From Methanobacteriota archaeon (GTDB lineage Archaea; Thermoplasmatota; Thermoplasmata; RBG-16-68-12), in NCBI GenBank assembly GCA_005878515.1, contig VBLZ01000097.1, positions 7,634 to 71,633 of the forward strand: 64,000 nt of DNA, given 5' to 3'. A program made the position numbers and the translations under genes. This document shows positions 42,378 through 47,307 of the stretch, piece after piece (the first letter of the stretch is position 1; each line of letters opens with the position of its first letter). Below the pieces are notes generated by a model. That model saw only the letters and a program-made list of their open reading frames with translations. It was not told the DNA's origin and searched no databases.

Positions 42378-43007
42378 GTGAAGGTCGTTGTCTTCGGCGC
42401 GACGGGGGAGACCGGCCGTCTCCTCACGGAACGAACCCTGCGGGCGGGCCACACGGTCACCGCCTTCGTGCGCGATCCGGCCCGGATGCTCATCGTGCAC
42501 GAACGGTTGCGCGTGATCCGAGGCGACGTCCTCGACCCTCCTTCGGTTGAGCGAGTGATTCCAGGCCACGATGCGGTCCTCTCGGCTCTGGGGAGCACGG
42601 CCCGCAATCCGGCACCGGTCCTTTCCGAGGGCGTTCAGCACATCCTCGATGCGATGGAACGGTCCCGCGTCCGGCGGATCGTGGCCCTCTCGGCGGCCGG
42701 CGCGCTGGGGGAGTCGGCCGGATTCGCAATCGGGAATGCGGGCCTGCGAATCTTCCGAATGTGGCTGCCGCAGGTCTACCGAGAGCATCGCAAGATGCTC
42801 GACGAACTTCGGCGGCGCGAACTCGAATGGATCGCGGTGCGCGCCGTCCTGTTGACGAACGGCGCAGCGAAGGGTCGCTACCGCATTGCGATCGAGGGAA
42901 TTCCGCGGTGGGGCTTTCGGATCTCTCGCGCCGATGTCGCCGACTTCATGATCCGCCAACTCACGACCGATGAGTTCGTCCGCAAGATGCCCGCGACGGC
43001 GTATTGA
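42378..43007 (+). CDS. NAD(P)-binding NmrA/SDR-like oxidoreductase (atypical SDR)
   Basis: VKVVVFGATGETGRLL is a Rossmann GXXGXXG motif. The protein is 209 aa and starts at GTG. Confidence 0.75.
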   Translation: MKVVVFGATGETGRLLTERTLRAGHTVTAFVRDPARMLIVHERLRVIRGDVLDPPSVERVIPGHDAVLSALGSTARNPAPVLSEGVQHILDAMERSRVRRIVALSAAGALGESAGFAIGNAGLRIFRMWLPQVYREHRKMLDELRRRELEWIAVRAVLLTNGAAKGRYRIAIEGIPRWGFRISRADVADFMIRQLTTDEFVRKMPATAY

Positions 43008-43143
43008 ATCCGTTAGGATTCGCCAGGTAGGTGCACGGGCACCAACGACCGCATGCTTTTATACGGCCACCCAGATGAGTCGACCGCTTCCCGAGGCGAT
43101 GAAGAAGCCTTGGGTGGCCCGAATCCCCGGGAGCGGGGCTGCG

Positions 43144-46100
43144 ATGATCAAGCAGGCGGAGAAGACGTATGCTCCACTTGAGGTGGAGCGACAGGTCCAG
43201 GAATTCTGGGACCGCGCGAAGGTCTACCGGAAGACCGTCGCCGCGCGGGAGAAAGGCGAGGATTTCTTTTTCGGCGACGGCCCGCCGTACACAACCGGAT
43301 CGATTCACCTCGGAAACGTCCTGAACAAGACGATCAAGGATCTCGTCGTCCGCTATCATCGGATGCGCGGCTACCACGTCCGGGACCAGCCGGGCTACGA
43401 CATGCACGGCCTCCCGATCGAGGTCCAGGTCGAGAAGACCCTCGGGATCACGAACAAGAAGGAGATCGAAGAGCTCGGCATCGAGAAGTTCGTGAACACC
43501 TGCCGGACGTTCGCGACGGACCTCCTGCAGACGATGACGAAACAGTTCCAGTCGCTCGGCATCTGGCTCGATTGGGACCGCCCGTACATGACGATCCGCA
43601 ACGAATTCATCGAGGCGGCGTGGTGGACGCTGAAACGCGCCCACGAACACGACTGGATCTACGAGGCGCTCCGGTCCATCCAGTGGTGTTCCCGATGCGA
43701 GACGGCCCTCGCGGACGCCGAAGTCGAGTACTCCGACGAAACGGATCCGTCGATTTACGTCAAGTTCCGCCTCGCCGGCAAGCCGGACGAATCCCTGCTG
43801 ATCTGGACCACGACCCCGTGGACCCTTCCCGCCAATCTCGCGATCGCGGCGCATCCCGATTTCCGGTACGCGAAGGTGAAAATTCCACATGGCAAGAAGC
43901 CCGAGTACGTCTGGCTCATGGAGAGCGCGGTGCCCGACGTCATGGCCCGCGGCGGGGTGACGAAATACTCCGTCGTCGAGACGAGGAAAGGGAGCGACCT
44001 CGTCGGGCTCGCATACCTCCACCCACTCCGGACGAAGCTCCCCTACCAGAAGTCAGCGAAGGGCGAGTGGGTCCACAAGCTCGTCTCCTCGGACACGGTC
44101 GCCGCCGAGTACACGGGGCTCGTCCATTCGGCCCCGGGGCACGGACCGGAGGACTTCGAGCTCGGTCAGAGGCTCGGCCTTCCCGCCTTTTCGCCGGTCG
44201 ACGCGGGAGGCCGTTTCACCGCGGACGCCGGCGCCTACGCGGGCCAGAAGGTGAGGGAGGCGAATCCGGGGATCATCGCGGACCTGCGGGCGGCCCGCGC
44301 TCTCTTCGCGGACGAGACGATCCTCCATGCATACGGCCATTGTTGGCGATGCAAGACCCCGATCTTGTTCCGCGCGACGGTCCAATGGTTCCTCAAGGTG
44401 ACGGACTTCAAACCGAAGATGGTCGAGGAGGTCGGGCGGGTCAGATGGTTCCCGGACTGGGCCGGATCGGCGCGCCAACTCGATTGGACGAGCAACCTGC
44501 GGGACTGGTGCATCTCCCGGCAGCGGTACTGGGGCATCCCCCTCCCGATCTGGAGGTGCGCGAAGTGCAATCACTGGACGGTCGTCGGATCGGCCGAATC
44601 CCTTCGAGGTGCGAGCGGCTACAAGGAAGGAATGGACCTTCACCGGCCCGGCATCGACCGGATCGCGCTCCCATGCGAGAAGTGCGACGGCGAGATGCGG
44701 CGGGTCCCCGACACGGTCGACGTGTGGTTCGACAGCGGCGTCTCGAGCTGGGCGAGCCTCGGCTACCCGGCTCGCGACGACGAGTTCCGCCGCTGGTGGC
44801 CTCAGGACTGGATCGTCGAAGGGCCGGACCAGACGCGGGGCTGGTTCAACTCCCAACTCGCGGCAGGGGTCGTGGCGTTCGACCGGGCTCCGTACGATCA
44901 GGTGCTGATGCACGGTTGGGTGAACGGTCCGGACGGACGGCAAATGCACAAGTCCCTCGGGAACGTCATCGAGCCCGAGACGGTCGTCGACAAGTTCGGG
45001 GTCGATCCGCTCCGATTCTATGTGATCGCCGTGAACGCGCCTTGGGACGACATCACGTTCCAGGAGGAGGGCGTCCGGAACGCGCAGCGGACCTTGAACA
45101 TCCTGTGGAACGTCCTGCGGTTCGCGACGACCTACATGGTCTTGGACCGGTTCGATCCGTTCGCGGCGGACCTCTCCTCGACCGAAGGCCACCTCCGGCC
45201 CGAGGACCGTTGGCTCCTCTCGCGGCTCGAGGGTCTGAAGAAGACCGTGGACCTCGAGATGCGTTCATACAACCTGCACCGCGCGGCCCGCGCGGTCGAG
45301 GCGTTCATCCTCGATGACCTCTCGCGGTGGTACGTGAAGCTGGTCCGCGGGCGGACCTGGACGGAGACCGACAACGGGGACAAGCTCGCCGCGTACCGCG
45401 TGCTCTTCGAAGCGCTGAGTACCCTTGCGATCCTCCTCGCCCCCGTCGCGCCCCACATCGCAGAGGCCATGTATCAGCGCCTCGATGGACGGAAGCTCAG
45501 CGTGCACATGCTCGATTGGCCCGACGTCCGAGCGCAATGGCTTCGGCCCGAGCTTGAGCGGTCTATGTCGATCGTGCAAGAAGAGGTTGAAGTCGTCTCG
45601 AATCAACGACAGAAGGGAGGGCGGAAGCTCCGTTGGCCGCTGAAGCTGATCGCGGTCCGCAGCGCCACACCGGAAGCCGCGGAGGCGTTTGCCGCACTGC
45701 GGAGTATCTTCCTGGACCAGGTGAATGCGAAGGAACTCGTGATCTTGGAACCCGCCGACGAGTTTCCGGGCACCGTCGTCGTCGCGAAGCCCGACGCCGC
45801 GGCGATCGGCAAGGCGTACAAAGCTCTGGCACCCAAGATTGTGAAACTGCTCGGGACCCGGGCCCCGGGCGAGCTGCAAAAGGCGTTCGAGCGCGGTTCG
45901 TACACGCTCCATGCGGACGGGCAGACGTTCGAGATCGAACCGACGATGGTGCGCTTCGAGAAAGCGCTCCCCCCCGAGGTCGTCCGGGTGGAGACGCCTC
46001 ATGGTGAGATCTACCTCGACCTTCGCGTGACGCCGGAGCTCCAAGCCGAAGCGTACGCTCGCGAGATCGTCCGCCGAATCCAGCAGATGCGGAAAGACCT

Positions 46101-47307
46101 CGACCTGGACATCGACGACTTCATCGCCACGGTCATCAAGACGAACAAAGAATTCGCAGCGACCCTCGAAGCACAGCAGGCCTTCATCGCCCGCGAGACT
46201 CGATCTCGCAGCTTGACGTTCACCGACAAGGCCGTCGCCTCCGAACATGTCGTCGAATGGAAGGACGTCGACGGTCATGGCGTCACGATCGGGGTCACAC
46301 CGCTCCATCTCTCCGAATCGATTCGCGAATTCACCCGGATCCCCGGCCTCACGATGGCGAAGGCGATGGCCCTTTTCGACGCGGGCTACAAGAGCCTCGC
46401 GGCGCTTCGCTCCGCGACGAAACAGGAGTTGCTGGCCGTCGACGGCCTTGACGCAGGAGACGTCGACCGGATCACCGAATTCCTCGCCGTCCCAGAAAAG
46501 AAGGACGCCGTCTGCCCGACCTGCCAGGCGTCCGTCGCGGCCGACGCGCGGCGCTGTCCTCGATGTGGAGAGCCGATGGCGTTGGAGGCCACGCCCTGCC
46601 CCCGATGCAAGTCGGCTATTCCTCCCGGCGCGGACGCATGTCCTGTTTGCGGCTTCGCATTAATCGGCCAGGCCGCTCCAGGGACGCCCTCGCGGACGCC
46701 GTGCGTCGCGTGCGGAGAGCTGATTCTCGCGGGTTCTTCCGAGTGCCCCTCGTGCGGTGCGCCGCAGAAGCGACCGGTCCCGCTGGTTTCGAGTCCAACC
46801 GGTGAGGACGAGGCGCCGGCGCTGCTGAAAGACTCCTCCTCGTACCTCGTACGAGAGACCACGCCCGAGGAGGCGTATCGCCTATTCCTCATCGCACATA
46901 ACACGGGGAAGAAGGGCATGATCATCACGCGACTTTTCCCGCAGAAGGTCCGAGAGCGCTTCGGGCTGAAAGATCTGCCGATCGTCTGGTTGAGCAACGT
47001 GGGCAAGGAGGACTCGGTCCGACCGAAAGACCTCGAAAAGTTATCCTTGGCCGCGGAGCAATTCCTCTCCCGCGAGAAAGGCGTGGTCCTTCTCGACGCG
47101 ATCGAATATCTAGTGACGAACAATAATTTCCTGACGGTGCTGCGTCTTGTGCAATCGATTCGCGATCAGGTGGCCGTCAACAACGGGGTGCTGTTGCTTT
47201 CCGTCAACCCGTCGACCCTCGACGCCCACCAGATGACGCTCCTCGAACGCGAAGTGGATCAAGTGGTCAACGTGTCCGGCGGGCCGACGGGTTCCACTTC
47301 GGGATGA
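43144..47307 (+). CDS. ileS: Isoleucyl-tRNA synthetase fused to a roughly 330-aa C-terminal extension (HhH + multiple zinc ribbons + DUF835-like domain)
   Basis: The HIGH motif (GSIHLGNVLNK) and KMSKS motif (MHKSLGNV) define the archaeal-type IleRS body. The frame then continues without a stop through GLTMAKAMALFDAGYKSLAALRSATKQELLAVDGLD (helix-hairpin-helix-like), six CxxC pairs (CPTCQ…CPRCGE…CPRCKS…CPVCGF…CVACGE…CPSCGA) and a terminal domain …GMIITRLFP…VVLLDAIEYLVTNNNFLTVLRLVQSIRDQVA… that resembles DUF835. The start was chosen at MIKQAEKTYAPLEVERQVQEFWD. Confidence 0.85.
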   Translation: MIKQAEKTYAPLEVERQVQEFWDRAKVYRKTVAAREKGEDFFFGDGPPYTTGSIHLGNVLNKTIKDLVVRYHRMRGYHVRDQPGYDMHGLPIEVQVEKTLGITNKKEIEELGIEKFVNTCRTFATDLLQTMTKQFQSLGIWLDWDRPYMTIRNEFIEAAWWTLKRAHEHDWIYEALRSIQWCSRCETALADAEVEYSDETDPSIYVKFRLAGKPDESLLIWTTTPWTLPANLAIAAHPDFRYAKVKIPHGKKPEYVWLMESAVPDVMARGGVTKYSVVETRKGSDLVGLAYLHPLRTKLPYQKSAKGEWVHKLVSSDTVAAEYTGLVHSAPGHGPEDFELGQRLGLPAFSPVDAGGRFTADAGAYAGQKVREANPGIIADLRAARALFADETILHAYGHCWRCKTPILFRATVQWFLKVTDFKPKMVEEVGRVRWFPDWAGSARQLDWTSNLRDWCISRQRYWGIPLPIWRCAKCNHWTVVGSAESLRGASGYKEGMDLHRPGIDRIALPCEKCDGEMRRVPDTVDVWFDSGVSSWASLGYPARDDEFRRWWPQDWIVEGPDQTRGWFNSQLAAGVVAFDRAPYDQVLMHGWVNGPDGRQMHKSLGNVIEPETVVDKFGVDPLRFYVIAVNAPWDDITFQEEGVRNAQRTLNILWNVLRFATTYMVLDRFDPFAADLSSTEGHLRPEDRWLLSRLEGLKKTVDLEMRSYNLHRAARAVEAFILDDLSRWYVKLVRGRTWTETDNGDKLAAYRVLFEALSTLAILLAPVAPHIAEAMYQRLDGRKLSVHMLDWPDVRAQWLRPELERSMSIVQEEVEVVSNQRQKGGRKLRWPLKLIAVRSATPEAAEAFAALRSIFLDQVNAKELVILEPADEFPGTVVVAKPDAAAIGKAYKALAPKIVKLLGTRAPGELQKAFERGSYTLHADGQTFEIEPTMVRFEKALPPEVVRVETPHGEIYLDLRVTPELQAEAYAREIVRRIQQMRKDLDLDIDDFIATVIKTNKEFAATLEAQQAFIARETRSRSLTFTDKAVASEHVVEWKDVDGHGVTIGVTPLHLSESIREFTRIPGLTMAKAMALFDAGYKSLAALRSATKQELLAVDGLDAGDVDRITEFLAVPEKKDAVCPTCQASVAADARRCPRCGEPMALEATPCPRCKSAIPPGADACPVCGFALIGQAAPGTPSRTPCVACGELILAGSSECPSCGAPQKRPVPLVSSPTGEDEAPALLKDSSSYLVRETTPEEAYRLFLIAHNTGKKGMIITRLFPQKVRERFGLKDLPIVWLSNVGKEDSVRPKDLEKLSLAAEQFLSREKGVVLLDAIEYLVTNNNFLTVLRLVQSIRDQVAVNNGVLLLSVNPSTLDAHQMTLLEREVDQVVNVSGGPTGSTSG

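Follow-up and report, generated by a model that had tools for sequence, protein, structure and literature searches.

The window analysed here is a 64-kb stretch (64,000 nucleotides) of archaeal genomic DNA. Its ileS gene is a single uninterrupted open reading frame in which the isoleucyl-tRNA synthetase (IleRS) body is extended by an (HhH)2 domain, three zinc ribbons and an acidic spacer, with DUF835 as the C-terminal domain. The open frame covers positions 42970..47307 on the + strand (1445 codons without a stop). Translation most likely begins with the ATG at 43144, which opens the sequence MIKQAEK and gives a protein of 1387 aa, the length originally predicted. We favour this codon because orthologue alignments begin at query residues 52–59 and because a start at the earlier ATG would overlap the upstream gene; the alternative upstream start, at 42970, is unlikely. 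Domain positions from the Pfam search are given in 1445-aa numbering throughout. The features of the locus are as follows.

43144..47307, + strand: ileS fusion gene, 1387 aa plus stop, defined by the ORF, profile matches and orthologue alignment
43195..45042, + strand: class-I catalytic domain with CP1 editing insertion, from the tRNA-synt_1 match (76–691) and motifs
45205..45648, + strand: anticodon-binding domain, PF08264 (Anticodon_1), Pfam match 746–893
45706..46248, + strand: IleRS C-terminal domain, PF19302 (DUF5915), Pfam match 913–1093
46324..46485, + strand: (HhH)2 domain, PF14520 (HHH_5), 1119–1172, 30.7 bits against a cut-off of 27
46513..46755, + strand: three zinc ribbons with six CxxC, PF12773 (DZR), from the Pfam match and motif count; lineage-variable
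46756..46833, + strand: acidic, weakly conserved spacer, overlapping the disordered part of the model (tail residues 207–220, pLDDT <50)
46834..47265, + strand: DUF835 (PF05763), RecA/KaiC fold without a P-loop, Walker-B Asp position kept
47266..47304, + strand: short unconserved C-terminal tail, 3–27 residues after the EVD motif in orthologues

The IleRS body is complete. TIGR00392 (ileS) matches residues 67–906 with 941.2 bits against a cut-off of 621.4, an equivalog-level match, and we take the protein to be the housekeeping IleRS of its host, a Thermoplasmata archaeon from soil. The HIGH and KMSKS motifs had been described as intact; both sites are present, but their canonical spelling is not, and they read HLGN (113) and QMHKS (658–662). 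These variants are typical of the clade, where the consensus across 54 sequences is H[LIM]G[TQN] and xM[SH]KS. The His and Gly of the HIGH motif and the second Lys of KMSKS are conserved in all 54. CP1 editing motifs are found as WTTTPWT at 279, kept in 53 of the 54 sequences, and HSAPGHG at 386. Judged from these sequence features, the synthetase part looks catalytically active. Residues 1–1050 resemble the archaeal/eukaryote-type IleRS, to which the window protein adds approximately 340 C-terminal residues together with the variant HIGH and KMSKS motifs. An ordinary archaeal IleRS would terminate at the end of DUF5915. Here, position 46260 corresponds to residue ~1097, directly past the end of the body, and the frame stays open across 46250–46300, with neither a stop nor a change of frame.

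The original prediction had allowed that a lost stop codon or a sequencing error might have merged two genes at this point. Comparison with related genomes rules this out. The whole fusion lies in one ORF in about 53 independent Thermoplasmata/Methanomassiliicoccales assemblies, of 82 related loci; these assemblies come from different species and keep the junction conserved in frame. The remaining related loci are accounted for by contig-end cuts, frameshifts or N-gaps. The splitting of the gene into two calls on some public contigs might be taken as a sign that an assembly error deleted a stop, but the splits examined come down either to frameshifts, on contigs rich in errors, or to scaffold gaps filled with N-runs, and there is next to no chance that the fusion is an artefact. 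Apparent stand-alone HhH-DUF835 genes beside ileS (P0085/L083, P0090/L084 and P0088/L085) likewise trace to N-run junction gaps or error-rich contigs, and no natural split form was found among the related loci examined. One locus on a long contig that seemed to lack the catalytic domain, L001 (P0039), is a frameshifted assembly. Another, L002 (P0053), is genuinely 5'-truncated and adjoins a divergent EamA gene, through either rearrangement or chimerism.

Relatives are encoded by 193 species representatives or more. The top 80 loci all belong to Thermoplasmata/Methanomassiliicoccales save one, L007, which is labelled 'Bacillati bacterium'. We conclude from the sequences that this is an ancient gene fusion, fixed in Methanomassiliicoccales and related Thermoplasmatota, and the fusion event can plausibly be placed in the ancestor of the clade. 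Conservation along the protein is uneven, with mean pairwise identities of 66.0% in DUF835, 61.1% in the catalytic core and 22–28% in the zinc-ribbon and spacer region. The 27 most distant orthologues show the same order, with 60.3% identity in DUF835 versus 55.3% in the catalytic core. No other segment of the protein is as conserved as DUF835, and its lead over the catalytic core implies an important function. The tail appears to be under selection.

Profile searches of the tail recovered all three of its proposed components. The HhH-like segment is matched by PF14520, and its closest solved sequences are the N-terminal HhH of haloarchaeal eL32, domain 5 of Hel308 and the N-terminal domain of RadA. 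Its helical hairpins are modelled at pLDDT 92–96, and the (HhH)2 unit is present across all aligned full-length orthologues. The DZR profile matches residues 1182–1228 plus a second stretch (E 3.8e-11, 43.4 bits against a cut-off of 27.3), and the tail contains exactly six CxxC motifs (1182, 1196, 1210, 1224, 1245 and 1259), confirming the tandem zinc ribbons. The number of CxxC pairs per orthologue ranges from 0 to 6, and zinc ribbons are missing in many. The linker measures 141–245 aa with 0, 2, 4 or 6 CxxC. Three fusions of 1644–2329 aa all contain additional HhH units, accompanied by TPRs in two of them, and the overall range of tether length is 141 aa to ~1150 aa. The make-up of the tether has been plastic in evolution: a single (HhH)2 unit is followed by 0–3 zinc ribbons and, in some lineages, by extra HhH units and TPRs. 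The six CxxC are best regarded as a lineage-specific trait of the tether, and not as a constant component of the fusion. This lineage-specificity had escaped the original prediction.

The terminal domain, described earlier as DUF835-like, is matched by the DUF835 profile at residues 1298–1428 with 111.7 bits against a cut-off of 33.1 (E 2.9e-32, profile positions 4–135 of 136). Its Walker-B segment reads LLDAIEYL, and its TNNNF, WLSN and RP..LEKLS motifs are invariant. A PDB sequence search with the domain alone returned nothing significant, and the DUF835 family profile reached only FlaH (E 0.03). In the profile comparison, LLD(A/G)xEYL aligns with the FlaH Walker-B strand VIDSLSIL and its Asp is nearly invariant, while the ITR of DUF835 aligns with the beta-2 ITTE of FlaH, which places T-R at the beta-2 acidic residues. 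The domain has a RecA-type core fold. No Walker A motif ([AG]xxxxGK[ST]) occurs across the 54 tails (the window protein and 53 orthologues); the corresponding stretch is E-x-x-P-x-x-[SA]-Y-x-L. DUF835 is an inactivated KaiC/RecA-like domain, in which the RecA/KaiC fold is kept and the P-loop lost. By topology, the polar signature kept across the family, TR..P, WL, P, EYL..N.F and D, sits at the C-terminal ends of the beta-strands, the ancestral nucleotide site. Compared with the KaiC-like/ArlH (FlaH) ATPases, DUF835 lacks the P-loop, replaces the beta-2 acids with T-R and is shorter (~145 aa); given the loss of the P-loop, it is presumably not a canonical ATPase. The kinship with KaiC and RecA was not part of the original prediction.

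The combination of an HhH unit with a RecA-type core raises the question of whether the tail is a degenerate RadA/Rad51 recombinase that gives IleRS a second, DNA-related function. The top Foldseek matches are Rad51/RadA chains, aligned over ~350–370 columns with HhH and core in like order, and the RadA N-domain is among the HhH sequence matches. We rejected this derivation on the grounds that the core has no Walker A motif and that HhH is not paired with DUF835 outside the IleRS-linked subfamily, among the non-IleRS DUF835 proteins compared. The Rad51-like order is probably coincidental, and a moonlighting recombinase is highly improbable.

DUF835 domains outside IleRS provide a second point of reference. 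A family-wide signature of Y, TR, P, WL, P, EYL, N, F and D is common to 67 non-IleRS DUF835 proteins, and the IleRS-linked subfamily carries an extra invariant layer (N1343, R1351, K1353, S1359, N1384, Q1400 and D1430). In 56 of the 67, no more than 5 residues follow the domain; in the window protein, 13 do. N-terminal partners in the non-IleRS proteins are HisKA_7TM, V4R, PAS, GAF, CBS, XylR_N and PEGA, and tandem DUF835-DUF835 proteins also occur. Elsewhere in archaea, DUF835 forms the extreme C-terminus of sensors (7TM, PAS, GAF, CBS, V4R and REC), from which we infer a transmitter or output position. The term output domain follows from this domain order. Galperin et al. 2018 (PMC5847659) count REC-DUF835 among the output domains, under the name 'iKaiC'. 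The window protein shares with these response regulators and sensors the Pfam family, the signature and the extreme C-terminal position of DUF835; it differs in what precedes DUF835, namely an essential enzyme of translation with HhH in place of REC, PAS, GAF or 7TM.

The best reading of the fusion, which we hold with moderate confidence, is that the tail may be a docking or output module linking IleRS to a DUF835/KaiC-type signalling assembly. DUF835 would bind a shared partner, for which a KaiC-family ATPase or further DUF835 domains are the most plausible candidates, and together with the flexible tether it would dock the housekeeping IleRS onto that assembly. The HhH unit probably supplies only weak, non-specific contacts to RNA or the partner, plus spacing. 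IleRS could then act as the input, its substrate- or tRNA-bound state being reported to the pathway; this direction is suggested by the domain order, with inputs N-terminal and DUF835 C-terminal. Alternatively, the pathway may act on IleRS, localising or modulating it. Gene context counts against this reading: the only conserved neighbours across 84 loci are convergent AcnX-swivel/NUDIX and AcnX genes, with no linked KaiC-like gene, and there is no DUF835 paralogue within the 64-kb window.

The original prediction had offered two targets for a tether, nucleic acid or another partner, and the data favour the partner. A cis-acting nucleic-acid-binding extension, in which HhH, ribbons and DUF835 make IleRS bind tRNA(Ile) more tightly or anchor it to rRNA or the ribosome, would have a parallel in the general tRNA-binding domains appended to other synthetases. 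No tail segment is basic, however: those of the window protein have a pI of 5.1, 6.4 and 6.7, and orthologue medians are 5.6–6.2. Many orthologues dispense with the zinc ribbons, and the DUF835 signature is also present in membrane and PAS/GAF/REC sensors that have no link to tRNA. The IleRS body, moreover, already has full anticodon-binding and C-terminal domains. Tethering to nucleic acid is less favoured on these grounds, and we consider a tRNA-binding extension unlikely.

RecA/KaiC-fold proteins typically form rings or filaments, and the tail could on that basis be a pure self-assembly scaffold, with KaiC/ArlH-like rings or stacks of DUF835 oligomerising IleRS or nucleating a multi-synthetase or translation complex without any signalling. 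Tandem DUF835-DUF835 proteins, which recall the CI-CII arrangement of KaiC, fit such a scaffold. So does human IleRS, whose C-terminal repeats mediate assembly of the multi-synthetase complex (PMC4394549). The human repeats are similarly a non-catalytic C-terminal appendage, although they are unrelated in fold and lineage and the archaeal appendage comes from a signalling family. Subunit interfaces in the RecA/KaiC superfamily normally surround a bound nucleotide, however, and DUF835 is missing the P-loop. Its occurrence on many different sensors also argues for a common signalling role, and we judge a pure scaffold to be rather improbable.

If the tail is a docking or output module, GCN2 offers an analogy. 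GCN2 is a eukaryotic protein in which a HisRS-like domain, itself catalytically dead, is fused to a kinase. The resemblance is one of analogy and not homology: a synthetase-type module and a signalling module share one polypeptide, with possible coupling to charging status. The output of GCN2 is a kinase, whereas here the synthetase appears active and the output would be a non-enzymatic KaiC-like domain. By the same logic, IleRS-DUF835 might be a starvation sensor in which uncharged tRNA(Ile) or isoleucine occupancy is relayed through the tether and DUF835 to a KaiC-type hub. We regard this extension as speculative and doubtful; if true, it would couple tRNA charging directly to global regulation in Methanomassiliicoccales and their relatives. 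Most archaea, to our knowledge, are without RelA/SpoT and GCN2.

Extra domains are well known in eukaryotic aminoacyl-tRNA synthetases, where they join translation to signalling and complex assembly; we know of few comparable appendages in archaea. Here, a signalling-family domain has become a fixed part of an essential synthetase throughout an archaeal clade that includes Methanomassiliicoccales of relevance to the human gut and rumen. A physical connection between this enzyme of translation and a signalling network of archaea may be the result. The fusion also connects the DUF835/'iKaiC' family for the first time with a biochemically understood protein. With an enzyme that can be assayed and a host genus that can be cultivated, it offers an experimental handle on the DUF835 partner and on the coupling of translation and regulation in archaea.

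The literature searched (IleRS with KaiC, Methanomassiliicoccales, iKaiC and appended HhH) contained no description of DUF835 on any aminoacyl-tRNA synthetase, in agreement with the original prediction that this association was not known. In public databases the proteins appear under no name other than 'isoleucine--tRNA ligase' or 'class I tRNA ligase family protein', and there is no NCBIfam model for an IleRS-DUF835 fusion. IleRS with an extra domain is already an annotation category in NCBIfam NF040702, 'ileS_w_GNAT', where the added domain is an N-acetyltransferase.

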